NCBI GenBank assembly: GCA_963732675.1
Contig: CAVTAJ010000013.1
Span: 98,137-162,136 of the forward strand
Direction of reading: 5' to 3'
Source of the DNA: Nitrospirota bacterium
GTDB taxonomy: Bacteria > Nitrospirota > UBA9217
Length of the DNA: 64,000 nucleotides
A program made the position numbers and the translations under genes. Under the pieces are notes generated by a model. The model was not told where the DNA came from, made no database searches, and saw only the letters and a list, made by a program, of their open reading frames with translations. Position 1 is the first letter of the stretch; every line of letters begins with the position of its first letter. Shown one piece after another: positions 33,867-50,753 of the stretch.

Positions 33867-34601
33867 TCAAGGGAATAGTTCCGGTGTTCCTGTCGTGCTG
33901 CCGGCCTGTTTTGCCACATCCCGCCTGACCCGGTACCTTCCGACAAGGATGACCGCCGCGGCACAGGCGATCTCAACAGAATAGATGATCAGCGGGGTCG
34001 GCGTGATGAACCGGCTGATGATCGGATCGGTAATGATCATCTGCCCGCCGATCTTGCCGAGGAGGGCGGCTCCGATGTAGATGATGACCGGATATTTGTC
34101 CATGAGCATTGAGAGCAGACTGCTGGTGAACACAATGAAGGGGATGCTCAGCCCCAGGCCGAAGAGGAGGAGAAAAAAATTCCCGTTCGAGGCCGCGCCC
34201 ACGGCCAGCATGTTGTCGAGGGCCATGGTGATGTCGGCGATCACGATCAGCCGGATGGCGTGCCAGAGCGTGGCAGCTTCCTTATGGGTCTCCACTGCTT
34301 CTTCGTCTTCGACAAAGAGCTTGACGGCGATCCAGACGATGACGATGCCGCCGATGAGCTTGACGTAGCTCATGGTGAGCAATTGCGCAACGAAAAAGGT
34401 CAGCGAGACCCGAAGCAGCACGGCCGCAAGAGAGCCGAAAATGATGCCCTTTCTGCGCTGTTCCTTCGGGAGAGCCCTCACGGCCATGGCGATGACCACG
34501 GCATTGTCGCCTGCCAGGAGAAGGTCGATGAGGACGATGCTGAAAAGAGATGAGAGGAATGGCAAATCCCACTGAATTGTACCGAGAACGTCGAAGTTCA
34601 A
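33867..34601 (-). CDS. TerC-family integral membrane protein
   Basis: TTG start follows AAGGAG. SIVLIDLLLAGDNAVVIAMAV...IVIADITMALDNMLAVGAA, the duplicated DN motif of TerC/YjbE proteins. Confidence 0.85.
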   Translation of the reverse strand: MNFDVLGTIQWDLPFLSSLFSIVLIDLLLAGDNAVVIAMAVRALPKEQRRKGIIFGSLAAVLLRVSLTFFVAQLLTMSYVKLIGGIVIVWIAVKLFVEDEEAVETHKEAATLWHAIRLIVIADITMALDNMLAVGAASNGNFFLLLFGLGLSIPFIVFTSSLLSMLMDKYPVIIYIGAALLGKIGGQMIITDPIISRFITPTPLIIYSVEIACAAAVILVGRYRVRRDVAKQAGSTTGTPELFP

Positions 34602-34616
34602 ATACTGCTCCTTGAC

Positions 34617-34650
34617 GAAAAAAATGATGGGAAGGCAAGTACCTTCCCAT
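34617..34650 (-). terminator. intrinsic terminator after the Yip1-like gene, directly upstream of the TerC RBS
   Basis: On the minus strand, ATGGGAAGG-loop-CCTTCCCAT is followed by T7. Confidence 0.75.
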
Positions 34651-34656
34651 GTTTCG

Positions 34657-35415
34657 TCATGAGTATACCACCGACGGCGGCTTGTTGACTAGTGCTATAT
34701 GTATTTCATCAAACGGTGCATTATCGGGAACGATGATCGAGAGAAGCGGAGTCCGTCGTCTTCTCCAGGCCCACCATCTTTTTTCTGAATCCTGTGCCCG
34801 GATGTCCGCCCCAATCCCCATGAAGAAGAGCATCACGCCGATCAGTCCGAAAACCAGCCATGCCCTCGTGACCTCGATCCCGTGCACCTTTCTGCTGATC
34901 AGGACGTAGAGGTACGTGAGCAGGGCAACGGAGACCAGGAGGCCCCAATAGGGGATGACCAGGAGCAGCGTAGTGATCGGCATGAACGCCGCGAGATAGG
35001 CCACGCAGCAGTAGGCGGTCTCGTAGGATTCACGGGACCCCAATATTTTCCAGACGGCAAACACGAGGCCTGCGCCGGCAAAGCCGAGTACGGCATAGGC
35101 CAGAGGATAGAGCATGATTGATGCGATCGCCATCCCGGTGCTCAGGATCGGGGTGCGCGAAAGCTCGGCGAACGGATAGAGAACAATGGATACCATCGTC
35201 ATGCCGGTGCTGAAAATGGGGTTCGATGCCATGTCGAACAGGCCGAGCGCGGCGGTGACCAGTCCGTTGATCACGCCCATCATCACCATGAATGCAAGCG
35301 GCAGGGAAAATCCTCCGCTCTCCGGCATCTCTCGAAAGAACGCTGCCGGAGATGTTATGACCTTGACCGCAGTTTGCATGAGTGCCGTGACCGTGACAGC
35401 TTTTTTCTCCTCCAT
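34657..35415 (-). CDS. Yip1-domain membrane protein
   Basis: ATG at 35415 follows GGGGAGG. MEEKKAVTVTALMQTAVKVITSPAAFFREMPESGGFSLPLAFMVMMGVINGLV... Five or more TM segments, with an internal duplication (NPIFSTGMTMVSIVLYP / TPILSTGMAIASIMLYP). Confidence 0.7.
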   Translation of the reverse strand: MEEKKAVTVTALMQTAVKVITSPAAFFREMPESGGFSLPLAFMVMMGVINGLVTAALGLFDMASNPIFSTGMTMVSIVLYPFAELSRTPILSTGMAIASIMLYPLAYAVLGFAGAGLVFAVWKILGSRESYETAYCCVAYLAAFMPITTLLLVIPYWGLLVSVALLTYLYVLISRKVHGIEVTRAWLVFGLIGVMLFFMGIGADIRAQDSEKRWWAWRRRRTPLLSIIVPDNAPFDEIHIALVNKPPSVVYS

Positions 35416-35884
35416 AACGATACCTCCCCTGAGTGTTATTTCGCACTGATACAGATCGCGCTGAGATGGATACGTGAAAAAAAAGAGCCGTACGATGAAC
35501 CTGGAGCCGCTGCCGGGAAGAACAGGTTGCTTGTCAGGATCGTGGTGCCTGGCTCCAACCGTATGAACATGTCGAGAGAAAAAAATAAAGACCGCCAGTC
35601 CGAGCCGCAATGCCGACCGGAATTCACTACTGTCTTCCGTTTATTGCGTGCGTATACGTTCCTTCTTTCCTTAATTGATATCGAACCGGTTCCTTGCGTG
35701 CTGAATACAGAGTATGTCCATGGCGAATCCGCCGCGTCATATCACCTCCCGTGAACAGGAACAATCCTTGCCGACGTCATATTATACGCTAAATGTGTAT
35801 TGAGTGGAAAAAATTTTTCAATGAAAACATGGCGTTATGTCTATTTATAACTTTATAAGTTATGAAGTTCAGTCTTTAGATAGG

Positions 35885-38572
35885 TCACCGTGTTCTTCGT
35901 CTTTTGATCATTTTCTCGATCTCGACAGCAAAGAACACGACCGATGACAGGAGCAGAACGAACGCGAGTTCCACTGGCGTAAGCGGCTGGGTCTTGAAGA
36001 TGGGATTCAGGAAAGGGACATAGATGGTGGCCAGCTGAAGGACCAGCGTTGTAAAGACACTCAGAATGAGCGGCTTGTTCGTAAAGATCCCCTGGGAAAA
36101 AAGCGACTCTTTCTCGGAGCGGATAGCCATTACGTGGCCCAGCTGCGTGAGGCAGAGCACGGTGAAGACCATGGTCTGCCAGTGGGCGTCGCCGATATGG
36201 ATGGCCCATGCCTGGAGCGAGAGCGTGACCCCTCCCATGAGCAGGCCCACCCAGATAGCGTGGATGCCGAGTCCATGGGCAAAGAGGCTTTCCTGAGGCT
36301 TGCGCGGCGGCCGCTTCATCACGTCCCCTTCCTCCGGCTCCACGGACAGGGCCAGCGCCGGAAGGCCGTCGGTCACGAGGTTGATCCAGAGGATATGGAT
36401 CGGCAGGAGCGGGATCGGGAGGCCCAGAAAGGGCGCCAGGAAGAGGGTCCAGATCTCGCCGGAGTTCGTGGTGAGCAGGTACTTGATGAACTTGCGGATG
36501 TTGTCGTAGATCCTGCGGCCTTCCTTCACGGCCTTTACGATGGTGGCGAAGTTGTCGTCCAGCAGGATCATGGACGACGCCTGCTTGGCCACATCCGTAC
36601 CCGTGATGCCCATGGCCACACCGATGTCGGCGCGCTTGAGCGCCGGCGCGTCGTTCACCCCGTCGCCGGTCATGGCCACGAAGTGGCCCTTGTCCTGGAG
36701 CGCCTGGACGATCTTCAACTTCTGTTCCGGCGCTACCCGCGCGTACACGCGGATGGACTCGACGCGCTGTTCGAACGCCTCGAGCGAGAGGGCTTCGAGC
36801 TCAACACCGGTAATGATCGCCGCTGGGTCATCGTTCTCGAGGATGCCCACCCGTTTCGCGATGGTCCTCGCGGTCAGGGGATGGTCTCCGGTGATCATGA
36901 CCGGGATGATGCCGGCGCTCTTGCAAAGCGAGACGGACTCCGTTGCCTCTTCCCGCGGAGGGTCCATCATGCCCATGAGGCCGAGGAGGACCAGACCGGT
37001 CTCGGCGTTTTCAGAGGACAGGTCCGCCGGGACAGTGTCCCAGACCCGCATCCCGATGGCCAGGACCCGGAGCCCATCCGCGGCCATCTGGTCGCTGATC
37101 GATTGCATCTTCCGGACATCAATATCCTGTATCCCTCGTGATGTCAGGACGCTCGCTGAGCGTTCGAGCACAACCTCCACAGCTCCCTTGGTAAAGGAGA
37201 TATACGATCCGCTTATGACTGACCCCTGGCCCATGCCCCCTGACGCCGGCAGTCGATGAAACGTGGTCATGAGCTTTCGATCGGAATCAAAGGGGAGCTC
37301 CGCTGTGCGGGGATAGACGGCCTCCAGTTCCTGCTTTCTGAATCCATGGTCGCGTGCGGCAACAAAGAGCGCGGCTTCGGTGGGATCTCCGGTCACTTCT
37401 CCCGACGCGTCCTGGCGTGCATCAGTGGAGAGGGCCAGCGCGGTGAAGAACAAGGGTTCGGAGGGTCCAGGGTGCCAGGGCCCGGGTTTTCCTTCGCCTT
37501 CCTGAGCCCTGACCCCCGACCCCTGACCCCGCAATAACCTCCCGTCGCACCACATCTCCTCCACCGTCATTCTGTTCAGGGTGAGCGTTCCGGTCTTGTC
37601 CGTGCAGATGTAGGTGACCGATCCGAGCGTTTCGACAGCCGGAAGTTTGCGCACCAGGGCATTCCGTTTCACCATCTTGCGCGCGCCGAGGGCAAGGGCG
37701 ATGGTGACCACGGCGGGCAGGGCTTCGGGAATGGCGGCAACGGCGAGGCTTACGGCCACGAGGAACATCCTGACAGGCTCCTCTTCCCGCATCAGGCCTG
37801 CGACAAAAACGATGGCGCAGATGGCGAGCACGGCATAGGCGAGTTTTTTACCGAACGCAGCGAGCCGCTTCTGGAGCGGCGTCTTTCCCTCTTCCTCGCC
37901 CTGGATCATGGCCGCGATCCTGCCGAGCTCGGTGTCCATGCCCGTTGCCGTCACCATGCCGATGCCCCGGCCGTAGGTCACGATCGTGCCCTTGTAGAGC
38001 ATGTTCTTCCGGTCGCCGAGGGGAAGCGGCTCCTGCTCGAGCGTCTGCGGGTGTTTTTCCACAGGAAGCGATTCGCCCGTCAACGCGGCCTCTTCGATCC
38101 GGAGCCGGGCTGACTCGATGACCCGCATGTCCGCAGGCACGATCCTGCCGGCTTCAAGGACCACGATATCGCCGGGCACCAGCTCCGATGCCGCGATGGT
38201 CTGATGCCCGTTGTCGCGGAGGACGACGGCAAGAGAGGCCGCCATCTTCTTGAGCGCTTCCATGGCCTTCTCCGCGCGGTACTCCTGCGTGAACCCGAGC
38301 ACGGCGTTCAGGAGCACGATCACGACAATGGCCGCCGTATCAGCCGGCTCGCCGATGATCCCGGAGATCACTGCCGCCGCGATCAGGACCAGGATCATGA
38401 AGTCCTTGAACTGGTCAAGGAACATCATCACGGGTGTCTTCTTCTTTTTTTCGACAAGCTCATTGGGGCCGTGGGTTTCGAGGCGCGCCTGTGCCTCTTC
38501 CGAGGTCAGGCCCTGGAGGGAGGATCTCAGTTCAGCAAGTGTTTCTGCAACACTGCGTTGGTAGGGGTACAC
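35885..38572 (-). CDS. P2-type (Ca2+/Mg2+-like) cation-transporting P-type ATPase
   Basis: Intact 895-aa ORF. Motifs: [24 protein letters not shown] (a PEGL-type motif, not CPC), [19 protein letters not shown]. Confidence 0.9.
37453..37531. repeat. heptad-hairpin element, GGGTC/GACCC word type, embedded in frame in the ATPase gene
   Basis: + strand: AGGGTTCGGAGGGTCCAGGGTGCCAGGGCCCGGG...CTGAGCCCTGACCCCCGACCCCTGACCCCGC. It encodes [26 protein letters not shown] in the ATPase. Confidence 0.7.
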
Positions 38573-38969: not shown

Positions 38970-39071
38970 CTAAGTCTTTTTATTCTGCGGCTGATCTCCG
39001 CCACATAGATGCTCTCCATGCATCAAATGCGTTCCGCCGAACAACATCATCACAGCCATCATGACTACCAT
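38970..39071 (-). CDS. candidate 33-aa Met/His-rich membrane peptide, below the ORF-track size cut-off
   Basis: My reverse translation gives MVVMMAVMMLFGGTHLMHGEHLCGGDQPQNKKT. AGGGAGG lies 19 nt upstream, which is poor spacing. Confidence 0.25.
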   Translation of the reverse strand: MVVMMAVMMLFGGTHLMHGEHLCGGDQPQNKKT

Positions 39072-39119
39072 GATACCGATGACGACTTAGCCTCCCTGAT
39101 TGTTCACATAACCTCTCTC

Positions 39120-40858
39120 TTAAATGGTTCCGTTGGATGAGTTCAACTGGTTCATAAGCGTCTGCATGTCTGTCGCGGTCAGCCCTGATTTGTTCATTGT
39201 TGACCCCATGAACGTTGTCATCGCAGTGGCCAGCCCACTTGTTCCTGCCGTGGACTGCATCATGGTGCCGCCGCCCATCATGCCTCCACCCATGCCGCCC
39301 ATGGTGATAGACGTGCCGCCCATCATGCCGTTCATGATACCATCCGATGCGTCATTCATCATGGCCGTTATCAGCGCTGCGGGATCGGTCATGCTGTTTG
39401 TCTGGGCATACTGAGACATGGCGGCAATGCAAATGCCGTAGTTCTTCATGGCCGTCGTCTGTACCTCCGGATACTAATTCAGCCGCGTTCATCGGCATCG
39501 TCTGGAGGATGTCAGTGACCATGAAGTAATTGCCCACGGACGTGTTTGCCGCAGCGATGTTCGCGCCGGTCATGCCGCCTGCCATGTTGTTGGCCATGGC
39601 CTGGGCCATTGATGTAAGGGGTGTCATCTGAATGCCGGTGACCGTGCTTCCGCTTGAAATGTTCGGAATGACTGCGGTCATGATATCGCCGGACAACATG
39701 GTCATGGTCGTGCCGGTTGCCAGGTTCGTCATACGAGCCTCCGCTCATCTTGAGCATGACGGGACCGGAATAGGCGCCGAGGGACAGGCTGAAGCTGCCC
39801 ATGCTGTTCGTGGTCCCGCTGGCCAGCTGCGCACCCATGGCGCCGCCAGTCATTGAATATGCCATGACCGTGGAGTCGCTCATCGACCCGTTGAAGACCG
39901 ATCCGCTGACCATCCCGTTCATCATCGTTCCTCCTCCGCTCTGAATGGTGCCGGTCGCCGAGGAAGCTAAGTGGTTCATGAGTGTCTGCATGTCCGTCGC
40001 GGTTACGCCTGACTTATTCATGGTGGATGTGATGAACGTCGCCATTTCCGAGGCGAGCCCGCTTGTTCCCGCCGTTGTGGTCATCATGGAGCTGCCGGTC
40101 ATCATACCGCCCATCATGATCGGCGTACTTCCCATCAAGCCGTTCATGACCCCGTCCGACGCGTCGCTCATCATGGACGTGACCATGCTTGACGAGGAGG
40201 TCATTCCCATGTCCTTTGCGGACTGCGACATGGCGGCGATGGCCATCCCGTAGTTTTTCATGTCCTGGGTTGCCGTGCCGCTCGAACCTGACACCAGCGG
40301 GTTCATGGGCTGTGTATGCAGGATATCAGTGACCATGAAGTAATTGCCCACGGACGTGTTTGCCGCTGCGATGTTCGTGCCGGTCATGCCGCCTGCCATG
40401 TTGTTAGCCATGGTCTGGGCCATGGAGGTAAGCGGGGTCATTTGAATTCCCGTTATGGTACGTTCCGCTGTCACCGAGGGAATGACAAGCGGTCATCACG
40501 TCGCCGGGAGACATGGTCATGGTGGCTCCCGTTGCTTCATCTATATAGGATCCACCGCTCATCTGGAGCATGACAGGACCGGTGTAAGCGCCCATCGTCA
40601 TGCTGAAATTGCCCTGCGAGTCCGTTGTTCCACTGGCCACCTGAGTGCCCATGACTCCATTTGTGATGCCGTATGCCATTACCGTTGCTCCGCTTACCGG
40701 CCCTTTAACCGCTGTGCCGCTGATGGTTCCGCTATTTGTAGCAGGAGTTGTCCCGTTGTCGCTGCCGCCGCTCCCCCTCCGCAACCAGAAAGCAGCGACA
40801 TGGACCCGATCAAGAGCGTGAGAGCCAAAATTACGCGTAGATTTCTGTTTCTTTTCAC
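39120..40858 (-). pseudogene. about 580-aa extremely Met-rich lipoprotein made of two tandem units of about 285 aa; interrupted as sequenced by about 4 frame changes (about 40795, 40480, 39735 and 39452)
   Basis: GTG at 40858 follows AAGGAGG. VKRNRNLRVILALTLLIGSMSLLSGC is a lipobox. Four overlapping ORF-track fragments (40404..40910, 39512..40474, 39352..39732, 39120..39449) read through collinearly. Unit 1 (ISGTAVKGPVSGATVMAYGITNG...TGIQMTPLTSMAQTMANNMAGGMTG...MKNYGMAIAAMSQ...) is repeated as unit 2 (VSGSVFNGSMSDSTVMAYSMTGG...TGIQMTPLTSMAQAMANNMAGGMTG...MKNYGICIAAMSQ...). Confidence 0.75.
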
Positions 40859-40915
40859 TGTAAGCCTCCTTATTGATTTTGTACTGAGTACTTTTTTTCA
40901 CAATTAACAACCATT

Positions 40916-40941
40916 AGACGAGCGGAAAACAAAAAGGTTAC
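40916..40941 (-). promoter_or_regulatory. ECF-type promoter candidate GTAAC-N16-CGTCT upstream of the Met-rich lipoprotein gene
   Basis: The minus strand reads TTTGTAACCTTTTTGTTTTCCGCTCGTCTAATGG. The motif and spacing are the same as upstream of the ECF sigma gene. Confidence 0.55.
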
Positions 40942-41066
40942 AAAGAAAAAAATTGGTCCTTTAGTAGCAGGACGATATATAATGGCTATCCCTATGATGG
41001 TGCTATAATAATAACACAAAGCAAAGAACGCACTGCAATGACGTGTCTCGACAACAAGGAATAAAT

Positions 41067-41414
41067 ATGCGCAACCGCTCTATTATAAATATAATCGTCC
41101 TGCTCCTGCTCACCGGCTGCGCACCCAAGTCAACTGCTCCTGAGGTGTTGAGCAACGGGGTCCGCTTTTCGCTTTTCGCTCCCGCTGCTAAGAGCGTCGC
41201 CATCGCCGGCAGCTTTAACCAGTGGGATCCAGAGCAGGCCCACCTCACGGGTCCTGACAAGAAGGGCCTCTGGACCATTATTCTGCCGCTCTCCGCGGGC
41301 CGCCATGAGTACCGCTTTGTCATTAACAACAGTGAATGGGTCCTGGACCCGGCTGCTCCGTCAATAGATGACGGGCTCGAAGGGAAGAACTCCTTTGTCA
41401 TCGTTCCGCCATAA
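41067..41414 (+). CDS. lipoprotein with a CBM48 / AMPK-beta glycogen-binding-like (E-set) domain
   Basis: MRNRSIINIIVLLLLTGC lipobox. VRFSLFAPAAKSVAIAGSFNQWDPEQAHLTGPDKKGLWTIILPLSAGRHEYRFVINNSEWVLDP. Confidence 0.75.
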   Translation: MRNRSIINIIVLLLLTGCAPKSTAPEVLSNGVRFSLFAPAAKSVAIAGSFNQWDPEQAHLTGPDKKGLWTIILPLSAGRHEYRFVINNSEWVLDPAAPSIDDGLEGKNSFVIVPP

Positions 41415-41504
41415 GAAACCGCAGAAGAGGGTGCCCCGGAACAGAGGGAAGCCTCCCGAAGAATAGTCCCTATATGGTGGCGGCGAAGTCCGGCAAAAAA
41501 GAAT

Positions 41505-41530
41505 GTAACTTTTTTTCTTATCATTCGTCT
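41505..41530 (+). promoter_or_regulatory. ECF-type, probably autoregulated, promoter candidate GTAAC-N16-CGTCT upstream of the sigma factor gene
   Basis: GAATGTAACTTTTTTTCTTATCATTCGTCTTACG. The -10-like element lies only 13 nt before the annotated ATG, so the mRNA would be nearly leaderless. Confidence 0.5.
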
Positions 41531-41543
41531 TACGTGTATAAAT

Positions 41544-42107
41544 ATGAATATTGATCAGCAGTCCGGGGAAGCGGACATTATCCGGCAATGTCTCGATGGA
41601 GAGGCGGATTCCTATTCCGTCCTGGTGGACCGCTATAAAAAGATGGTTTACAACGTGGCCTACCGGATGCTTGGAGACGGTGATATTGCGAAGGATATTG
41701 CCCAGGAAAGCTTTATCGCCGCCTATGGGGGTCTTAAGACGTTCAAGCAGGACGCGAAATTTTCATCATGGCTCTACAGCATTGTCTTGAACAAGTGCCG
41801 GGACCATCTGCGGCTGACAAAAGAAAACATCCCGATCGACGATATTTCAGACATCAGGCCCGGCAGCGGTATTTCTCCGGAACAGGCCGCGGCGGACCAC
41901 CAGAGCAACGACCTGCTGCAACAGGCCTTGAATGCGCTCCCGGCGGAATACCGCGAGGTGCTCGTTCTGAAACACATCGAGGAGCTGGATTACCAGGAGA
42001 TCTCGGCGATCACGGGGGCCAGCGTGTCGGCGCTCAAGGTCAGGGCGCATCGGGGGCGTGAGATGCTGAAAAAGATACTGGAAAAATCAGGAGTGACCCA
42101 TGGATAG
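41544..42107 (+). CDS. ECF-subfamily RNA polymerase sigma-70 factor
   Basis: Region 2: YSVLVDRYKKMVYNVAYRMLGDGDIAKDIAQESFIAAY...FSSWLYSIVLNKCRDHLR. Region 4: LPAEYREVLVLKHIEELDYQEISAITGASVSALKVRAHRGREML. Confidence 0.9.
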   Translation: MNIDQQSGEADIIRQCLDGEADSYSVLVDRYKKMVYNVAYRMLGDGDIAKDIAQESFIAAYGGLKTFKQDAKFSSWLYSIVLNKCRDHLRLTKENIPIDDISDIRPGSGISPEQAAADHQSNDLLQQALNALPAEYREVLVLKHIEELDYQEISAITGASVSALKVRAHRGREMLKKILEKSGVTHG

Positions 42108-42753
42108 AGAACGGGAGATCATACATAAGATCCTTGATGGCGATGCGGAGGAGGAAGAACAAAAGGTCCTTTCGCGGGGCATGGAGGCCGATACCAGGCT
42201 GAAGGAGGAATTCACCGGCCTCATGAACGCGGTCCGATTGCTCAAGGAGAGCGAACGGCACGAGGCGCCGTTTTCTTTTACCGCCGAGGTGATGAAGAAA
42301 CTTCCGCGAAGATCGCCGTCCGTGCTCAGCCGTTTCAGGGAATTCCTGTTTGGCAGCCGGGTGCTGCGCTGGAACATGGCGTCGGTGCTGGCAACGGCGG
42401 TTATCGTACTGGTCATGGTCGTGACTGTTTCCCGGATGCATCGCGAGCAAACCGGGACGATCGCAAGCAGTTCATCGGGCCAGGATGAGACCGCGGTCTC
42501 GGTCCGGTTGACCTTTCACTCTCCCCAGGCGCAGCGTGTGGCGGTAGCCGGCGATTTCAATAAGTGGAAGACCGATGCCCATGAGATGAAAAAGAGCAAT
42601 GGTATCTGGAGCATCGATCTGAAACTGAAGCCCGGCATCTATTCCTATAGCTTCGTCGTTGACGGTAAATCATGGGTCCCTGATCCCGGCGCTGAAGTAT
42701 TTCAAGATGACGGTTTCGGTTCACGGAACGCCGTCCTGAAGGTGGACATATGA
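42100..42753 (+). CDS. single-pass anti-sigma factor candidate with an extracytoplasmic CBM48-like domain
   Basis: Overlaps the sigma gene by 8 nt. TM segment: MASVLATAVIVLVMVVTV. C-terminal domain: VRLTFHSPQAQRVAVAGDFNKWKTDAHEMKKSNGIWSIDLKLKPGIYSYSFVVDGKSWVPDP. Confidence 0.7.
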   Translation: MDREREIIHKILDGDAEEEEQKVLSRGMEADTRLKEEFTGLMNAVRLLKESERHEAPFSFTAEVMKKLPRRSPSVLSRFREFLFGSRVLRWNMASVLATAVIVLVMVVTVSRMHREQTGTIASSSSGQDETAVSVRLTFHSPQAQRVAVAGDFNKWKTDAHEMKKSNGIWSIDLKLKPGIYSYSFVVDGKSWVPDPGAEVFQDDGFGSRNAVLKVDI

Positions 42754-43634
42754 AAAGGACGAATAGCATGCTAAGGTTTGCGGGCAGGGTACTGCTCCTG
42801 TTGCTTCTGGTCCCGTTGTCAGGGACGTTTGCGGCTGAGAACCGGCATCTTGACAATATCCGCAGTGTCCTGGAAGCATCAACAATCCCGCGAACGGAGC
42901 AGGCTGAAGTGAATACCAGGGCGGCTGCCGCCATGAACGCCGGGGTGCCGGGAGAGGACGTGGAGATCATCGTTTCGCGGGCAGTGGGCCGTGGAGCAGA
43001 CGCCGGAGCGATCAACCGGTTCCTCGATACGGGCCTGTCGGCGAAAAAAGAGGGACTGCCCGTTCGTCCTGTGCTGGACAGGATAGAGCAGGGACTGTCG
43101 AAGGGCGTTCCGACCGAGCGGATCGTTGCAGCTTCCCGGAGGCTTGCGGAGAAAATTGCAACAGCGCAGCCTCTTGTCGATGCGCTCATCCGCGACGGCA
43201 TGACACCCCGGCGGGGCAATGAACGCGAAGCGGCGATCGCATCAGCTGCCCGCGCGCTCGAGAAATCCATGAACGCTCAAGATGTCGGGGCTATGGGCGC
43301 TGCAGTCCGGAACAAGCGGGGATCGCTGTTGCTCTTTACCAGCGCCATGGACACGGCAACCTATTTTGCCGCAAGCGGCATGTCTCCGAAGACTGCGTCG
43401 CGCCTTGTCCGGGATGCCGTGCAAAAGGGCTCTTCCGAACACGACCTGGGCGCCATGGTACGTCGGATGGATGATGAGATGAAACACGGGACCAGCGCGG
43501 AGGATGTTGCGGCGAAAATGGAGCGCGGAAACATGCAGGGAGAGCGGGGCATGGAACGTCAGGAAATGCGCCAGGAGATGAATACCGACCATGGAAAGGG
43601 ATCAGGTTCCGGTATGGGCGGGCACGGGATGTGA
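42750..43634 (+). CDS. secreted helical-repeat protein with a Met/His/Gly-rich tail; function unknown
   Basis: ATGA start/stop overlap with the anti-sigma gene. Signal peptide MLRFAGRVLLLLLLVPLSGTFA. Tail: ...MQGERGMERQEMRQEMNTDHGKGSGSGMGGHGM. Confidence 0.65.
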   Translation: MKRTNSMLRFAGRVLLLLLLVPLSGTFAAENRHLDNIRSVLEASTIPRTEQAEVNTRAAAAMNAGVPGEDVEIIVSRAVGRGADAGAINRFLDTGLSAKKEGLPVRPVLDRIEQGLSKGVPTERIVAASRRLAEKIATAQPLVDALIRDGMTPRRGNEREAAIASAARALEKSMNAQDVGAMGAAVRNKRGSLLLFTSAMDTATYFAASGMSPKTASRLVRDAVQKGSSEHDLGAMVRRMDDEMKHGTSAEDVAAKMERGNMQGERGMERQEMRQEMNTDHGKGSGSGMGGHGM

Positions 43635-43728
43635 TGATCGGAAACATCCTGGAACCAGGCTGTAATGGTATGGTTGAAAACCGTACGCAAGACGCGCGAG
43701 TAAACTACAACGACAGGAGGTAAATATT

Positions 43729-44292
43729 ATGAAACGGTCCTTATACATGATCATCAGTGTGTTCGTGCTGTTGCTCACCATGCTGGGTGCGGTATGGGCG
43801 GCAGAATCGAAGGAAGAGCAGAGTCTCCAGAAGGAAGCCGCTGCGATCAACACCACGGCAGGCAACGCGCAGGGCGAAAAGGTCGTGATCCAGAGGCTGG
43901 AAAAAGATTTCAACGTAAGCAACGACCGGATCCAGGGCCTGCGGGACCAGAAACTGGGATACGGAGAGATCGCCATCACCCTGTCTCTTTGTCAGAAGAT
44001 GCCAGGCGGCATCACGGACGCCAATATTCATCAGGTCATGACCATGCGCCAGGGACCGCCAACCATGGGCTGGGGCGATATCGCAAAAAAGCTCGGGACC
44101 AAGCTGGGTCCTGCAATTTCCCAGGTCAGGAACGTCAACAGGGAAACGAACAGAGAGATGAAGCACGAGGCCAAAGGCGATAAGGAGCACATGGAGAAAC
44201 ATCAGGAACAGCATGAAGAAATGCACAGGGAGTCCATGGGCCATGAGAGCATGGGCGGTGGCCAGGGTGCGTCCCATGGCAAAGACAAATAA
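43729..44292 (+). CDS. secreted protein with a His/Met/Glu-rich tail; function unknown
   Basis: RBS AGGAGG. Signal peptide MKRSLYMIISVFVLLLTMLGAVWA. Tail: EMKHEAKGDKEHMEKHQEQHEEMHRESMGHESMGGGQGASHGKDK. Confidence 0.65.
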   Translation: MKRSLYMIISVFVLLLTMLGAVWAAESKEEQSLQKEAAAINTTAGNAQGEKVVIQRLEKDFNVSNDRIQGLRDQKLGYGEIAITLSLCQKMPGGITDANIHQVMTMRQGPPTMGWGDIAKKLGTKLGPAISQVRNVNRETNREMKHEAKGDKEHMEKHQEQHEEMHRESMGHESMGGGQGASHGKDK

Positions 44293-44430
44293 GTTAAAAT
44301 CGGGAGCATGTTCCATTTAAAACGAAGGGCTGTCTTCATTCTGTTCGGACAATGCTTTGTTCAGGAAAGAGGAAGATAGTCCTTCGTTTGTATCTATGCG
44401 GTGACTCAATGTGAAGAAGGAGCTGCTATT

Positions 44431-45355
44431 GTGAAGAGAGAACAGGACCGACCCGAAGCGCGTAAGAGATATTTTTCACCTGCATTACTCCTCATTGGTT
44501 TGATCCTCTGCTTTTTTGTATTTCCCGGAAACGTCTTTGCCGGCCTTATCCTCGACGCGGAGCTGCGGCTCCAGTATGAGGACAACGTAGTCGGCCTTCT
44601 CTCGGACCAGCAGAAGGGCGGTGTCAGTACCGGGGCAGGAATAGCCGGCAGCACGGCCATGCAGGCCAGCAGCATGGGGGGTATGGGAGGCGGAAAGAGC
44701 AATTATACCGGATCAAGTTCGGGCTCCTCCCAGTCTCCGGGAGATTTTTCAGCGACCCTTTATGCCGAGGCCGGAGGATACCAGGATGTGGGCAGGGATG
44801 CGGAAGTATTCGCGAAAGGCTTTGCCTCACATACCTCCTACGACACCTACACGGACCTGAATTCGAACATCGGAGGCGTCAGCACCGGCATTTCTGTAAT
44901 TCTCAGTGACCTCCTCTCCACCCGCATGTCGGTCCTCGGAAAGATCAAGCGTTTTGACGACAGCCAGCGCGAACAGCACCGCCTACGCAGGGAACCTCAG
45001 CCTGAAGGAAAAGCTCACACCCTCGTTCTGGCTTCGGGAGTTCGGCCAGTATGAAAAGAACAGCGCAGATACATCTGTTTTCAGTTATACCGGCACGACC
45101 ATCGGCATCGATGCGGGCTATGCATTCACGACGAAGACCCGCGCAACACTCGGCTACAGCTATCTCGTCCAGAAGTATGACGAACCTTCCGGCGCCGAGA
45201 TGAAGACGCAGACCGCTTACGTGAGCGCTGAACAGACAGTGAGGAAGAACTGGGCTGTTTCCGGGGAGTACGATCTCCAGCTAAGCAAGGAGAACGTGAC
45301 CGGGACGAGCGCGACGAACAACATCTTCTCGCTGGCGCTGCGGTACAGTTATTAA
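44431..45355 (+). CDS. outer-membrane beta-barrel protein with a Met/Gly-rich loop; one frame change near 44970
   Basis: GTG at 44431 follows GAAGGAG. Signal peptide ...LLLIGLILCFFVFPGNVFA. Loop: AGSTAMQASSMGGMGGGKSNY. The barrel has alternating beta-strand periodicity and the terminal signature NNIFSLALRYSY. Confidence 0.65.
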
Positions 45356-45904: not shown

Positions 45905-46655
45905 TCAAGGCAGGGCCGCCGTATGCTGGTAATACCAGCTCACGACCTTTTCAATGTTGCCGATGATGCTCTCTTTTGCGTTCACCAGGAAGATCCGGTC
46001 CTGGATGTGGAACAGCTCGCGCTCCAGGCGCGTGATCAACGGGGGATAGGCGAACCGTCGCGCAAGCTCTGCCTCGAACATGGGCACGAGCTTGTCCTTC
46101 ATGCGGAGCTCCGTGTCCATGAGGAAAACAGCGATGGCGGGCGCCAGGTCCGCGACGCGGTCGAAGAACGCCGTGATCTCGCTGTCGTAGATCTGCTTGG
46201 GCGGCGAGGATTTGACTTCCACATAAACAAGCGCGCCATCGATCTTTGCGATCACATCGTAATCGCCGCCGACCCGCGGCCGCTTGAACTTCACGCCCCA
46301 GACCGCCGCGGAGCCGAACTCGCGCTTGAACACTTCGGCGACATACCACTCGAGCGTTTCTCCAAAGCTTCTGATCGGCCCCCTGGCAAGGACGTAACCG
46401 TTCTCCGTTTTCTTCACCAACTTGAGGGACACGAGATAATCGAGATACTCTTTCGTGATCGACGGTGTGGCATACCGCGTCACCTGCTCTGAGCGTGAAC
46501 AGCTTCTGGTGCTTGATCACGTCGCGCAGAAAGAGACGGAACGAATACTTATGGAGCATCCCGTAGAATTTTTGCTGAAATTTTTTTTGCGGAATAAGCA
46601 GGTCATCGGCAGGTTCCCTTTTATAGATAATAAAGCCCCGGTGCCGAAGGAGCAT
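45905..46655 (-). CDS. winged-helix plus PD-(D/E)xK nuclease-fold protein, function unknown; one frame change near 46480. The N-terminus may extend to a GTG at 46758 across an A-run.
   Basis: ITKEYLDYLVSLKLVKKTENGYVL is wHTH-like. GGDYDVIAKIDGALVYVEVKSS is a D...E-x-K nuclease core. The upstream in-frame coiled-coil ELAFLREEVKRLRKALNRQ has no start codon in frame. Confidence 0.55.
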
Positions 46656-47066: not shown

Positions 47067-47768
47067 TTATTGCAGTATGACCCTCATATCGAGTGCCGCA
47101 GCGCTGCGGGCATAGATGCGGACCGGGTTGAGGTCGATCTCTTTGATCCCGGGATGGTCGGTCATGAGCTTTGACAGGGCAGTGATGATCGAGAGCGCCG
47201 CCTCCTGGTCGAGCGCGGGGCTTCCCCGGAACCCTTTCAGGAACATGCCTGCCCGGGTCTGGGCGATCATGTCGAGCATCTCCTCGCGCGTCATGGGCAG
47301 GATGCCGAAGACCGCGTCCTTCAGCGCCTCGACCCAGATCCCGCCGAGACCGAAGGCAATCGAAGGGCCGAACTGCTCGTCACGCAGACCGCCGATCAAC
47401 AGCTCCAGGCCCTGCGGCATCATCTTCTCGATCAGGAACCAGCGGATCGTTGCGCCGGGAACACGCGCCGCGATCATGTTTTTCATCGTCGTAATGGAGG
47501 CCGACAGACCGGCGCTGTTCGTAATGTTCAGCATCACGGCCCCGGCGTCGGTCTTGTGCAGGATGTCGGGGGAAACGGCCTTGAGCACAACGGGAAAACC
47601 GAGCTTCTCGCCAGCGGCCACGATGGCCTTCTGGTCAGCGGGATCGGCCAGCACGAACCTCGGGACGATAATGCCCACTGAGCGCGCAAGCTCTTTGGCC
47701 TCGTGTTCGAAGAGCGCCTTTCGGCCTTCTTTTTGTGCTGCTTGTATGATCTCAGCGGGAGTATTCAT
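47067..47768 (-). CDS. ADP-forming acetyl-CoA synthetase (acetate--CoA ligase), ATP-grasp beta subunit
   Basis: ALFEHEAKELARSVGIIVPRFVLA...GFPVVLKAVSPDILHKTDAGAVMLNI...IEKMMPQGLELLIGGLRDEQFGP...EIDLNPV. Confidence 0.8.
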   Translation of the reverse strand: MNTPAEIIQAAQKEGRKALFEHEAKELARSVGIIVPRFVLADPADQKAIVAAGEKLGFPVVLKAVSPDILHKTDAGAVMLNITNSAGLSASITTMKNMIAARVPGATIRWFLIEKMMPQGLELLIGGLRDEQFGPSIAFGLGGIWVEALKDAVFGILPMTREEMLDMIAQTRAGMFLKGFRGSPALDQEAALSIITALSKLMTDHPGIKEIDLNPVRIYARSAAALDMRVILQ

Positions 47769-47781
47769 AAAAAGTACTTTC

Positions 47782-47885
47782 AGGAGAAATGGGGAAGTGG
47801 GAGAAAGGGAAGGTGAAGTACCTTGAGATGTTCAATCATACTAGCTGCTCTCTCCCTTTCGCCTTTCTTCTCTCCCTTTCCCCTT
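47782..47885. repeat. heptad-hairpin element, GGAGAAA/TTTCTCC word type, between the two ACS subunit genes
   Basis: AGGAGAAATGGGGAAGTGGGAGAAAGGGAAGGTGAAG ... CTCTCTCCCTTTCGCCTTTCTTCTCTCCCTTTCCCCTT. Confidence 0.85.
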
Positions 47886-47914
47886 AACAGGGTTCGATTT
47901 TATTCATGGCAGCC

Positions 47915-49282
47915 TTACTCTTTGCACGTGGCCTTCATGAGCGCCGCGAGCGCCCGCACCGCACGCTCAGGCGACGGATACACGGGGATGCCGAGTCGCA
48001 GGAGCGCATGCGTTGCCTCCTGCGTGTAGCCCAGTCCCTGCAGGATACAACAGGTGACGGGCTTCTTCGCCTCATGGCAGGCGCGGGCGATCAGGCTGGT
48101 CGCCTCTTCGCTCACCGTGGTGGCGCCCATCAGCACGATCACGACGGCCGCGTCGTAGTGCGGCAAAGCTTCTTTGAGCGCGGTGTAGTAGTCCTCATTT
48201 TTCCCGCTGCCGGTGAGGTCAATGGGGTTCCGCGTTACAAAAAAAGAAGGAAAGGCCTGGCCGAGCCGCTCCTGCACCTGCTGCGGTACCGGAGGCATCG
48301 TGAATCCTTCCTGCTGCGCCTGATCCGAAGCCGCGACCGCCATACCGCCGCCGTTCGTCACGATCAGGAGGCGGTTCCCTGTGCAGGGATAATCCATGAG
48401 CGCAACGGCCTTTGACGCGTCGATCATGTGGTCGAAGCCATAGGCCTCGACGGCGCCGGCCTGCCGGAAAGCGGCCTGGTACAGCCCGTACGTGCCGGCG
48501 AGGGTAGCGGTGTGCGATGCCACTGCGACCGCGCCGAGCTCGTGCTTCCCCGCTTTCCAGATGACCAGCGGTTTTTTGGCGGCACAAGCCTTTGCTGCCG
48601 ACAGGAATTTTCTGCCGTCGCCCACGGATTCCATGTACATGGCGACCGCGGCTGTCTGAGGATCGTCGGCGAAATACTCGAGCGCATCCGCGTCGTCCAC
48701 GTCCAGCCGGTTTCCGTAGTTCACGGCCTTGGCGATCCCCATGCCGTCCCGGGCAAGGGCTTCCATCAGGATGACGGTGATGGCGCCGCTCTGCGAGATG
48801 ATCGAAAGATGTCCCGTCGCGGGCCGTGACACCCGCTCCCGGGACACAAAGAAACTGTCGAGTCCATTGTCAGTGTTGTACACGCCGAGGCAGTTCGGCC
48901 CGATGACCCGGATGCCATGCCTTTTCGTTTTTTCAGCGATACGCTTCTGCATGGCAATACCCTCATCGCCTGCCTCGGCAAACCCGGAGCTGATGATGAT
49001 GATCCGGCGGATGCTTTTTTCATGAAGTGCGTCGAGTTCCTGCTCAACGAGCCGGGCGGGCAGGGCGATGATGGCCAGGTCTATCGCGTCCGGTATTGCC
49101 GCGATGGACGGGTAACAGTGGTGGCCGAGCAGCATCTCGTGCTTCGGGTTGACGGGATAGACCGCTCCTTTAAAGTGAGAGAGGTTCTCGAGGATGGCCG
49201 TGCCGGGCTTGGTGGGCTTGTCCGTGGCGCCGATGAGCGCGACGGTCCTGGGGTAAAAAAAATCGTGAAGATCGTGAGGCAT
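47915..49282 (-). CDS. ADP-forming acetyl-CoA synthetase, CoA-binding/succinyl-CoA-synthetase-like alpha subunit
   Basis: FFYPRTVALIGATDKPTKPGTAILENL...VYPVNPKHEMLLGHHCYPSI...DLAIIALP...IIIISSGFAEAGDEG...IRVIGPNCLGV. Confidence 0.85.
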   Translation of the reverse strand: MPHDLHDFFYPRTVALIGATDKPTKPGTAILENLSHFKGAVYPVNPKHEMLLGHHCYPSIAAIPDAIDLAIIALPARLVEQELDALHEKSIRRIIIISSGFAEAGDEGIAMQKRIAEKTKRHGIRVIGPNCLGVYNTDNGLDSFFVSRERVSRPATGHLSIISQSGAITVILMEALARDGMGIAKAVNYGNRLDVDDADALEYFADDPQTAAVAMYMESVGDGRKFLSAAKACAAKKPLVIWKAGKHELGAVAVASHTATLAGTYGLYQAAFRQAGAVEAYGFDHMIDASKAVALMDYPCTGNRLLIVTNGGGMAVAASDQAQQEGFTMPPVPQQVQERLGQAFPSFFVTRNPIDLTGSGKNEDYYTALKEALPHYDAAVVIVLMGATTVSEEATSLIARACHEAKKPVTCCILQGLGYTQEATHALLRLGIPVYPSPERAVRALAALMKATCKE

Positions 49283-49742: not shown

Positions 49743-50753
49743 ATGAACGCTGAGAGACCATACCTTCGCATCCTGCGGTATTCGGTACAGGCCGCTTTTT
49801 TTCTGCTTACGCTGTTTGTCGGCTACCGGTTTTATCAGTTCGTCCAGCACTTCGAAGCGGCCGGCCGGCCCTTTGTCCAGAGACCGCCGTCCGTTGACGC
49901 TTTCCTGCCCATCGGCGGGCTCATGGCCTTCAAGTACTTCATCCTGACCGGCATTGTCGAGCCGGTGCATCCCTCCGGCTTCATCATGTTCGTGGCGATC
50001 CTCGGCGTTTCCCTGGTCGTGAAAAAGGGCTTTTGCGGCTGGATCTGCCCTGTCGGCACGCTGTCGCAGTATATCTGGATGGCAGGTGAGAAGGTATTCG
50101 GCAGGAACTTCCGCATCGGCCCCTTTACGGACCTCTCGCTCCGCTCGATCAAGTACCTGCTCCTCGGGCTCTTCGTGTTCCTGATCGGGATCGCCATGCC
50201 GCCGAACATGATGGCCCTGTTCTTTATCGCCGACTATTACAAGATCGTGGACGTGCGGATGATGAAGTTCTTCACCGAGATGACCACGCTCACGATGTGG
50301 GTCCTCATCGCGCTCGGTGTGCTCTCCCTGTTGTACAAGAACTTCTGGTGCCGCTATCTCTGCCCCTACGGCGCGCTCCTCGGTTTGCTCAGCCGCTTCA
50401 GCCCCTTCAAGGTCCGGCGGAACGAAGAGAAGTGCATCCACTGCCACGCCTGTACGCAGCACTGCCCCACGCTGATCGATGTTGAGAAAAAAGAGGTGGT
50501 GAAGTCCGAGGAATGTTTCGGATGCCTGACCTGCGTGAGCCATTGTCCCGCGGAGGGCGCGCTCGAACTCACTGCAAGCGCCGGGAAAAAGGTCGGCGTA
50601 GTAAAACCCTGGCTGTTCCCCATTCTCCTGATCGTGCTTTTTTATCTCGTGATCGGCATCGGTGTTGCCACTGACAAGTGGCATTCGAAGATACCCAACG
50701 AGGATTACCAGGTGCTTATTCCGGAAGTGCAGAAGGAATATATGAAGCGGTGA
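49743..50753 (+). CDS. NapH/MauN-type polytopic membrane protein with 4Fe-4S ferredoxin-type motifs
   Basis: KKGFCGWICPVGTL, NFWCRYLCPYGALL, CIHCHACTQHCP and CFGCLTCVSHCP, with flanking TM helices. Confidence 0.8.
   Translation: MNAERPYLRILRYSVQAAFFLLTLFVGYRFYQFVQHFEAAGRPFVQRPPSVDAFLPIGGLMAFKYFILTGIVEPVHPSGFIMFVAILGVSLVVKKGFCGWICPVGTLSQYIWMAGEKVFGRNFRIGPFTDLSLRSIKYLLLGLFVFLIGIAMPPNMMALFFIADYYKIVDVRMMKFFTEMTTLTMWVLIALGVLSLLYKNFWCRYLCPYGALLGLLSRFSPFKVRRNEEKCIHCHACTQHCPTLIDVEKKEVVKSEECFGCLTCVSHCPAEGALELTASAGKKVGVVKPWLFPILLIVLFYLVIGIGVATDKWHSKIPNEDYQVLIPEVQKEYMKR

Follow-up and report, generated by a model that had tools for sequence, protein, structure and literature searches.

Gene content and organization of the locus

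A 64,000-nucleotide stretch of DNA from a Nitrospirota bacterium (assembly GCA_963732675.1, contig CAVTAJ010000013.1; the whole stretch is referred to here as the window) was analyzed for a gene cluster that encodes an extracytoplasmic function (ECF) sigma factor, a candidate anti-sigma factor, and a set of envelope proteins, some of them rich in Met. Six genes occupy the plus strand between positions 41067 and 45355, and the gene for a Met-rich lipoprotein is divergently oriented on the minus strand. The original prediction, read from the sequence itself, had placed on the plus strand a CBM48-like lipoprotein, an ECF sigma factor, an anti-sigma factor with a second CBM48-like domain, two secreted proteins (designated P4 and P5 here), and an outer-membrane beta-barrel; these identities and their order were confirmed, and the overlapping stop and start codons at 42100-42107 and 42750-42753 are real, as judged from the coordinates of the open reading frames (ORFs). 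A terminator scan revealed no convincing internal terminator within the operon. The features of the locus are as follows, with positions given in the window.

39120..40858, minus strand: Met-rich lipoprotein; GTG start codon after an AAGGAGG ribosome-binding site; lipobox LLSGC
40916..40941, minus strand: ECF-type promoter motif GTAACCTTTTTGTTTTCCGCTCGTCT, 57 nt upstream of the GTG of the Met-rich lipoprotein
41001..41009, plus strand: extended -10 element TGCTATAAT, 58-66 nt upstream of the ATG of the CBM48 lipoprotein
41067..41414, plus strand: CBM48/AMPK1_CBM lipoprotein, 115 aa; lipobox LLLTGC; Pfam matches
41505..41530, plus strand: ECF promoter GTAACTTTTTTTCTTATCATTCGTCT, 14 nt before the ATG of the sigma factor
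41544..42107, plus strand: ECF sigma factor, 187 aa; Pfam, NCBIfam, and PDB matches
42100..42753, plus strand: single-pass anti-sigma factor, 217 aa; RsiW-like N-terminal domain and C-terminal CBM48
42750..43634, plus strand: P4, secreted, 294 aa; predicted helical repeat with a Gly/Met/His tail
43729..44292, plus strand: P5, secreted, 187 aa; core of ~90 aa with a His/Met/Glu-rich tail
44401..45355, plus strand: outer-membrane beta-barrel, 317 aa once repaired; as assembled, ORFs 44401-45054 and 44906-45355

The Met-rich lipoprotein, which had been described as giant, is merely sizeable: as assembled, its gene is broken into four reading-frame pieces, and once repaired it encodes 577 aa. The lipoprotein maps colinearly to an intact 583-aa ortholog, but across four frame segments. 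With the orthologous locus L001 (92% identical) as the reference, the lipoprotein gene of the window has five inserted bases at four sites (40769-70, 40487, 39730, and 39460); one inserted G at 44971 splits the frame of the barrel gene. Deletion of these six bases yields stop-free ORFs of 577 aa (lipoprotein) and 317 aa (barrel), which are at least 90% identical to their orthologs. The frameshifts are most likely assembly errors rather than decay, because two unrelated genes of the window (30906-33806 and 45905-46655) are also frameshifted relative to L001, because L001 bears a different single frameshift within the same lipoprotein gene, and because the 583-aa ortholog is intact in the Illumina-assembled locus L021. 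If the frameshifts were real, the locus would be decaying in this genome, with the lipoprotein and barrel genes reduced to pseudogenes of no current function; in favor of such decay are the finding that none of the six inserted bases lies in a homopolymer and the concentration of four frameshift sites in the 1.74-kb lipoprotein gene versus none in the adjacent 2.7-kb ATPase gene. Given the unrelated split genes, the differing frameshift of L001, the intact L021, and the near identity of the repaired ORFs to their orthologs, decay is regarded as highly improbable. It is also to be set against decay that a single survey, whose bins carry names such as MFD....bin.x, supplied many of the nearest relatives as metagenome-assembled genomes (MAGs), with the sequencing method on record for L021 only (Illumina). 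Programmed frameshifting was considered and rejected, as the sites are neither slippery nor common to L001.

The first of the two other split genes (30906-33806, minus strand) is a large gene present as three ORFs (30906-32627, 32552-33052, and 33120-33806) with uncompensated indels relative to L001; its product has a signal peptide, an HEYTH metallopeptidase-like motif, TolB-like propeller repeats, and an Omp85-like C-terminal barrel. The second (45905-46655, minus strand) is a conserved gene without a family match that encodes 295 aa in L001, adjoins the cluster in six loci, and is divided in the window into two overlapping ORFs by an inserted T near 46490. Taken with the other cases, this split gene suggests that indels are a problem throughout the assembly.

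Co-conservation of the cluster and natural gene fusions

A scan of 185,579 species genomes identified 27 loci (numbered from L001), of which 26 are from Nitrospirota and one is a 3.4-kb contig binned as Betaproteobacteria. In essentially all loci that are long enough, tblastn recovered the gene order CBM48 lipoprotein, sigma factor, anti-sigma factor, P4, (P5), and barrel, with P4 identities of 33-90%, and the Met-rich lipoprotein adjoins the cluster in L001, L017, L021, and L024. A word-index search yielded 213 homologs of P4; the few that have a named source are from Nitrospirota MAGs, and no homolog is annotated as more than "hypothetical protein", bar one evidently misassigned JGI name. 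A profile search of 1.84 billion representatives extended the family to 509 relatives of P4 (E below 1e-10 for 135) and revealed more remote arrangements of the same parts. Thus, L028/L029 and L030 contain the sigma factor, the CBM48 anti-sigma factor, a protein of 434-437 aa, and P4, while L031, from a Planctomycetota MAG, contains a small CBM48 protein, P4, the sigma factor, the CBM48 anti-sigma factor, and a BBP2_2-like barrel. Six further metagenome loci have a CBM48 domain directly upstream of P4: in those long enough (L035, L036, and L040), the sigma factor and the CBM48 anti-sigma factor also lie beside P4, and the short contigs L037-L039 hold only the C-terminus of the CBM48 domain. 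In L041, a barrel homolog follows P4. The set, therefore, recurs in 27 genome loci and about ten remote loci, as expected of the single co-conserved system that had been suggested for these genes.

Two kinds of gene fusion were identified among the remote loci. In the 434-437-aa proteins of L028, L030, L035, L036, and L040, a CBM48 domain is joined to the end of a barrel, and the barrel part starts with ..LDLRAGYDNEILVDP, to be compared with LILDAELRLQYEDNVVGL in the window barrel. In L032, a single protein (P0347) consists of a barrel followed by a P4 domain. The occurrence of both barrel::CBM48 and barrel::P4 fusions suggests that the lipid-anchored CBM48 protein, the barrel, and P4 very probably work as one outer-membrane-associated unit, with the paralogous CBM48 of the anti-sigma factor located near the inner membrane.

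A conceptual analogy can be drawn to the RcsF-OMP-IgaA system, in which an outer-membrane lipoprotein associated with a barrel reports envelope damage to an inner-membrane regulator: here, too, an inner-membrane sensor is inherited together with a lipoprotein and a barrel, and fusions among such parts occur in some loci. In contrast to that system, to which there is no sequence relationship, the output here is an ECF sigma factor and not a phosphorelay.

The sigma/anti-sigma pair

The sigma factor matches the Pfam families Sigma70_r2 (E=4e-19) and Sigma70_r4_2 (E=5e-16) and contains only these two regions, as is characteristic of ECF (group IV) sigma factors; it also scores 107.9 bits against TIGR02937 (cut-off 42.9). 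Its closest solved relative is SigW of Bacillus subtilis (PDB 5wuq, E=6.8e-31). The SigW equivalog cut-offs are missed, with 143.7 versus 209 for PRK09641 and 134.3 versus 243.1 for TIGR02948, which marks the protein as SigW-like and not a SigW ortholog. In the anti-sigma factor, residues 6-72 match the RsiW anti-sigma domain (E=9.8e-07), one hydrophobic segment spans approximately residues 90-112, and the C-terminus matches AMPK1_CBM (E=6.4e-12) and the carbohydrate-binding module (CBM) of AMPK beta. There is no Cys anywhere in its 217 aa and, therefore, no HxxxCxxC zinc motif, so that it is not a zinc anti-sigma factor.

Thus, the SigW-RsiW pair is the best solved match to both the sigma factor and the cytoplasmic domain of the anti-sigma factor, and it shares with the present pair a single-pass anti-sigma factor, autoregulation, and an AAC...CGT-type promoter, which is the SigW consensus. 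RsiW is removed by regulated proteolysis. In contrast to SigW-RsiW, the pair described here scores below the equivalog cut-offs, lacks the zinc motif, carries an extracytoplasmic CBM48 domain, and operates in a diderm with three dedicated envelope partners.

Other ECF systems share the general layout. In the Fec system (FecI-FecR-FecA) and in the ECF/anti-sigma/SusC-like pairs of Bacteroides, as here, the gene for an outer-membrane protein is linked to those for an inner-membrane anti-sigma factor and an ECF sigma factor, and the signal would cross the periplasm. Unlike Fec, the present cluster has no TonB-dependent transducer, FecR domain, or N-terminal signaling extension, and the coupling would be provided by paired CBM48 domains and a helical-repeat protein; accordingly, no matches to Plug, TonB_dep_Rec, or FecR were found among the cluster proteins in Pfam and NCBIfam. 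The CnrYXH system of Cupriavidus, which responds to Ni and Co, similarly combines an ECF sigma factor, a membrane anti-sigma factor, and a helical periplasmic sensor to control metal defense, and P4 could take the role of CnrX. In contrast, CnrH is a weaker match to the sigma factor than SigW (E=2e-13), no PDB chain is detectably similar to P4, and the anti-sigma factor here is much larger and bears a CBM48 domain.

CBM48 domains at both membranes

The CBM48 lipoprotein matches Pfam CBM_48 (E=2.6e-13) and AMPK1_CBM (E=5.3e-11). Both CBM domains of the cluster exceed the Pfam gathering scores, with 50.5 and 42.0 bits for CBM_48 (threshold 22.4) and 43 and 46 bits for AMPK1_CBM (threshold 26.8), in agreement with the earlier proposal that the periplasmic domain of the anti-sigma factor is a paralog of the lipoprotein fold. 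Both also align with the CBM of AMPK beta2. Across 46 domains (21 from lipoproteins and 25 from anti-sigma factors), the motifs FNxW, GxW, GxYxYxF, WxxDP, and DDGxGxxN are invariant. The sugar-contacting residues of the AMPK beta CBM, as in the AMPK beta1-cyclodextrin structure, are two Trp and one Asn; these Trp/Trp/Asn positions are conserved in the domains described here, with FNxW, WxxDP, and the Asn aligned, which favors a glycan ligand without proving it. Unlike the CBM of AMPK beta, the domains here are periplasmic, are either stand-alone or fused to an anti-sigma factor, and have no enzyme attached.

The linkers of the two domains are short, at approximately 10 residues from the lipid-anchored Cys to the domain in the lipoprotein and approximately 20 residues in the anti-sigma factor. 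The two CBM48 domains, therefore, cannot meet across the periplasm, and the likely go-between would be either an elongated P4 or a shared ligand.

These features raise the alternative that the same module senses an envelope glycan and that its output is surface or envelope remodeling, with the Met content incidental to metals. The CBM48 domain at each membrane would bind a periplasmic or outer-membrane glycan, loss or excess of this ligand would trigger the anti-sigma factor, and the Met-rich, almost uncharged lipoproteins would be structural surface proteins. Beyond the CBM_48 scores and the alignment of presumed sugar-contacting residues with the invariant FNxW, WxxDP, and DDGxGxxN motifs, this explanation draws on the weak kinship of the barrel to BBP2_2 and EpsL, families linked to polysaccharide loci, on the regulon members of the remote loci, which are Ig-repeat and DUF4382 lipoproteins and not Met-rich, and on the tails of the wider P4 family, which are not Met-rich either. 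However, no genes for glycan synthesis or degradation recur among 129 ORFs flanking the cluster, CBM48 is specific for alpha-glucans and no periplasmic alpha-glucan is known here, and the conserved Trp residues may be structural. The convergence of unrelated, promoter-linked Nitrospirota proteins on Met/His-rich sequence would also be left unexplained. Glycan sensing of this kind is, on balance, considered unlikely.

P4, P5, and the outer-membrane barrel

P4 is the most conserved component of unknown family. Its AlphaFold2 model (pLDDT 81) consists of twelve helices in a repeat arrangement, followed by a disordered Gly/Met/His tail at residues 265-294. When this model was compared with PDB structures by Foldseek, the matches were mainly to designed helical repeats and none reached E<=0.001, there was no Pfam match, and a PDB profile search gave no useful match. 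PDB profile searches with P5 and the barrel likewise gave nothing useful. The gene for P5 is accessory: only some members of the Nitrospirota clade have it, about half of the loci contain it, and in some cases it is located upstream of the cluster.

The barrel ends in the C-terminal motif LRYSY and has a variable Gly/Met/Ser loop after its first strand. The Met theme that had been seen in this loop did not hold, as its 3 Met in 30 residues are within background and the loop is missing in five orthologs. The window barrel scores 19.3 against OMP_b-brl (cut-off 28.7). The gathering score of BBP2_2 (PF10082, 23.7 bits) is reached by three barrel orthologs, with 29.7 in L016, 25.4 in L022, and 31.6 in L031, in matches that cover only the last 60-75 residues.

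Among 20 barrel orthologs scanned, five gave sub-threshold matches to SlipAM (best E=7.9e-06) and five to MtrB_PioB. In Slam proteins, a barrel is joined to a periplasmic domain of helical repeats (TPR), and it was considered whether the barrel and P4 are a Slam-like device that delivers lipoproteins, among them the CBM48 lipoprotein and the Met-rich lipoprotein, to the cell surface, with the sigma/anti-sigma pair merely regulating supply. The barrel::P4 fusion would fit this design, and most promoter-linked genes encode lipoproteins. However, SlipAM (PF04575) reaches at most 18.7 bits in the per-protein scan versus a gathering score of 22, the window barrel gives no such match, no TPR match was found in P4 and no natural protein in its Foldseek search, the domain order in the barrel::P4 fusion is the reverse of that in Slam, and the CBM48 anti-sigma factor would be left unexplained. 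A Slam-like role is, thus, considered very unlikely.

For P4, P5, the barrel, and the Met-rich lipoprotein, no identity was found in Pfam, NCBIfam, the PDB, or the literature, in line with the initial impression that the cluster is not a named system. Literature searches for CBM48/AMPK1_CBM anti-sigma factors and for Met-rich ECF regulons returned nothing relevant, and the main text of the ECF reclassification paper contains no matching group.

Promoter motif and predicted regulon

The motif GTAAC-N16-CGTCT, which had been noticed before both the sigma gene and the divergent lipoprotein gene, occurs at exactly two sites in the window versus 0.18 expected, namely at 41505-41530 (plus strand) before the sigma gene and at 40941-40916 (minus strand) before the Met-rich lipoprotein gene. 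It precedes the sigma gene in 22 of the 22 loci that include upstream sequence, with the consensus tGTAACcTTTt...tCGTCTtA, at a distance of 9-32 nt from the sigma start codon in 20 loci and approximately 100 nt in two. Such a motif before the sigma gene is the usual signature of ECF autoregulation. Its location 14 nt before the ATG in the window implies a near-leaderless transcript.

The CBM48 lipoprotein had been assigned to the same operon. Its gene is indeed present at the head of the plus-strand series, but it lies upstream of the sigma promoter and is not obviously on the sigma-dependent transcript. A TGnTAnnnT match is found 57-82 nt upstream of the start codon of its orthologs in 11 further loci, as an exact TGnTATAAT in seven and with TATACT, TATGAT, or TAAATT variants in the others. 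The element TGCTATAAT is, thus, a candidate housekeeping promoter, which would make the CBM48 lipoprotein independent of the ECF sigma factor; expression of the lipoprotein is probably constitutive, which would befit a component of the sensor.

Additional motif sites suggest a wider regulon. The motif precedes the Met-rich lipoprotein gene also in L001, L017, and L021, and extra sites in L019, L022, L024, and L027 precede genes for nonhomologous Met/Gly/His-rich secreted proteins, mostly of low complexity. These comprise a family of 233-274 aa with N-termini such as AAMMGNGGGTGSMMGG (L019, L022, and L024), a (GSMGS[GR]Q)n protein (L027), an HMTGT-repeat protein (L024), and a His/Met-rich protein of 97 aa (L019). 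Two counter-examples are a DUF5666 lipoprotein (L013) and a charged low-complexity protein (L015). In the remote loci L028, L030, and L031, the motif precedes the sigma factor, P4, a divergent DUF4382 lipoprotein, and two other lipoproteins. Conversely, 31 ORFs in the 27 genome loci are Met-rich by the measure of at least 6 Met per 30 residues, and all but approximately seven of them either belong to the cluster or have the motif in front of them; the remainder are a family of NapH-like membrane proteins and three small proteins that adjoin the cluster anyway. The proteins linked to the motif in Nitrospirota are, thus, almost all Met-rich and predicted to be secreted or lipid-anchored.

Composition of the Met-rich proteins

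The Met enrichment reported for these proteins is real, and the Met-rich segments lie well beyond the background of the window, in which other ORFs contain 0-4.4% Met, compared with 11.6-16.7% in the pieces of the lipoprotein and 5.8% in P4. Once repaired, the 577-aa lipoprotein contains 13.3% Met. Its family (120 sequences analyzed) averages 11.7% Met, 15% Gly, 13.5% Thr, and 10.5% Ser and is almost devoid of Lys, Arg, Glu, His, Cys, and Trp. The protein contains two units of the same plan, in which an Ig-like beta-sandwich precedes a Met-rich helical region; only the sandwiches were modeled with moderate confidence. The family includes more than 800 homologs in 2-repeat and 3-repeat forms. 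In the two secreted proteins, the enrichment is concentrated in the tails: the last 45 residues of P4 contain 15.0% Met (median 7 Met), compared with 2.8% for the core (118 close homologs), and the tails of P5 contain 10.5% Met and 10.2% His versus 3.8% and 0.4% in the core (119 homologs). The Met theme looks like a Nitrospirota-specific output attached to a more general envelope sensor.

Several related proteins were observed in passing. A 799-aa homolog of the Met-rich lipoprotein (P0174, 56% identity) is annotated in the complete 6.7-Mb genome of the cultured Anaeromyxobacter oryzae. Homologous 142-aa secreted proteins without a Pfam family adjoin the cluster in L002 (3566-3994, plus strand) and L027 (6923-7351, minus strand) and contain up to 13 Met in 30 residues, e.g., QMGGGGMGGQQQPGGMMGSQQSQQMMGSQMM.

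Genomic neighborhood

Next to the cluster in the window (33867-38572, minus strand), three genes encode a putative metal transporter of the YjbE/TerC family, which scores 213 bits (cut-off 134.8), a membrane protein with a Yip1 domain, and a P2A ATPase that is PMR1/SERCA-like. The ATPase (35885-38572) is P2-type and not a CPC heavy-metal pump, as had been stated, since it has Cation_ATPase_N/C and no HMA domain and carries IPEALPAV in place of CPC; its best NCBIfam scores are 706.6 bits (PMR1-type) and 670.4 bits (SERCA-type), both just below the equivalog cut-offs. This block, which looks like a Ca/Mn homeostasis unit by its family matches, is a conserved neighbor of the cluster only in the closer clade. 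The ATPase and TerC were rejected as members of the system on account of this restricted co-location and because an AAC...CGT-type site before the ATPase gene was found only in L004, as a weak CGTA variant. An Rfam scan of the whole window gave no matches at the gathering threshold and, thus, no yybP-ykoY (Mn) riboswitch by the TerC or ATPase gene.

On the other side of the cluster, two ORFs (47067-49282, minus strand) read as ADP-forming acetyl-CoA synthetase-like subunits, and 49743-50753 (plus strand) encodes a NapH/MauN-type membrane ferredoxin at a sub-threshold NCBIfam score (80.3 bits versus a cut-off of 213). Both are conserved downstream neighbors in the closer clade, and they seem unrelated to the cluster. 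In L021 (12014-12805, plus strand) and L017 (11998-12786, plus strand), the gene directly after the barrel resembles, by its sequence, Lgt (prolipoprotein diacylglyceryl transferase); this may be coincidence, and is of note since most regulon members appear to be lipoproteins.

No recurrent functional partner emerged from the census of the 129 flanking ORFs, and no CusF/CusABC, multicopper oxidase, CopC/D, or P1B family was found among the cluster proteins in Pfam or NCBIfam. The exceptions to the absence of copper-related families are single cases. In L027, a DUF305 protein (11831-12262, minus strand; 72.7 bits) is encoded just downstream of the cluster and is followed by a DUF5676 protein with two transmembrane segments; DUF305 is the domain of the cyanobacterial copper-binding protein CopM. 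In L034 (1240-11544), a three-repeat 847-aa homolog of the Met-rich lipoprotein is divergent to a TlpA-like redoxin and two small Cys-rich secreted proteins, and genes for a heavy-metal efflux (HME)-RND pump, comprising CzcB, CusA/CzcA (1176 bits), and OEP, lie beside it.

Proposed mechanism and output

From the gene content, synteny, fusions, promoter motif with its targets, and composition described above, we infer the signal, its relay, a proteolytic step, and metal binding as follows. The outer-membrane unit, consisting of the barrel, the tethered CBM48 protein, and P4, would report a disturbance of the outer membrane or periplasm to the CBM48 domain of the anti-sigma factor, which would then lose its activity, with regulated proteolysis of the kind that RsiW undergoes as the simplest route. 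The freed sigma factor would transcribe from tGTAACcTTTt-N-tCGTCTtA promoters its own operon (sigma factor, anti-sigma factor, P4, P5, and barrel) as well as the divergent gene for the Met-rich lipoprotein. Because the promoter-linked proteins of Nitrospirota are almost all Met-rich, the most plausible output would be a layer rich in thioethers, located at the outer membrane and in the periplasm, to which soft metal ions, e.g., Cu(I) or Ag(I), would bind. Such a conserved, autoregulated ECF module, with envelope partners driving a Met-rich, soft-metal-binding output, is the preferred reading, to which we give about an even chance of being correct.

A soft metal is favored as the target because the secreted sequences are Cys-free and Met/His-rich and because of the neighbors seen in single loci, namely DUF305 in L027 and CusA/CzcA with the TlpA-like redoxin in L034. 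Comparable Cys-free secreted sequences rich in Met (and His) occur in known Cu(I)/Ag(I) binders, including CusF, the Met-rich inserts of CueO and PcoA, PcoE/SilE, and CopM/DUF305. Unlike these, the proteins described here have no homology to those families, no copper pump, oxidase, or regulator is linked to them, and the Met-rich lipoprotein has almost no His or charged residues.

Several observations weigh against a soft-metal-binding output. The 46 CBM48 domains have no conserved Met, His, or Cys; the Met-rich lipoprotein is nearly free of His and Cys as well as charged residues; and, outside the close clade, P4 tails are Gly/Arg/Pro-rich, with only approximately 25% having 4 or more Met. 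The AlphaFold2 model of the lipoprotein (pLDDT 42.6) leaves the Met-rich regions unmodeled and is too poor for a fold search, and two of the output genes are frameshifted in this assembly. Among the 129 flanking ORFs, no family occurs more than three times and no metal-resistance family is among the 25 most recurrent families listed, while the transporters nearby are a PMR1/SERCA-like Ca(/Mn) pump and YjbE/TerC, which are not copper genes and lack the promoter motif.

The same module could instead serve an oxidant response, in which the Met-rich proteins are a sacrificial sink for HOCl, H2O2, or O2 exposure in an anaerobe, sparing essential envelope proteins. A very high Met content with Cys nearly absent would suit this role, genes for OsmC, DoxX, and hemerythrin each occur twice among the flanking genes, and a TlpA-like redoxin adjoins a lipoprotein homolog. 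However, neither the cluster nor its recurrent neighbors were seen to include a gene for MsrA, MsrB, or MsrPQ, and the His-rich tails of P5 suit metal binding better, so that an oxidant sink is judged quite unlikely. Of the proposals made in the original prediction, that of one functional system stands by virtue of co-conservation, but Cu(I)/Ag(I) buffering or an oxidant sink is not established; the argument for either role comes from composition and two neighbor-gene anecdotes, and the case for a metal is weak. What is sensed and what the Met-rich proteins do are largely independent questions. Returning to the module as a whole, it is tentatively proposed, as a possibility that must be considered doubtful in its full form, that this is an undescribed trans-envelope architecture of multiple lineages, in which the barrel, the tethered CBM48 protein, and P4 as a helical-repeat adaptor signal to the CBM48 anti-sigma factor, and which, in Nitrospirota, drives a thioether defense made up of almost uncharged lipoproteins with 12-13% Met and Met/His-tailed secreted proteins that act as a soft-metal or oxidant sponge.

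Pairs of ECF sigma and anti-sigma factors are known in general, including many orphan groups. What is new is the combination of a CBM48 anti-sigma factor, an outer-membrane-tethered CBM48 protein, a barrel, and a helical-repeat protein as a sensor architecture, along with the spread of this sensor module beyond Nitrospirota, its fusion evidence, and a coherent Met-rich regulon. Although bacteria rely heavily on ECF sigma systems to sense conditions beyond the cytoplasm, few trans-envelope sensing mechanisms are understood, with Fec-type and Rcs-type systems as the main models, and the module adds a new and simple architecture in which natural fusions already indicate which parts touch and in which the promoter is clear enough for regulon prediction directly from genomes. 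If the Met-rich proteins do bind Cu(I)/Ag(I) or take up oxidants, they would provide envelope protection without classical copper machinery in uncultured, probably anaerobic Nitrospirota of soils and sediments, and a large family of very unusual composition (more than 800 homologs) would join the known metal and redox buffers.

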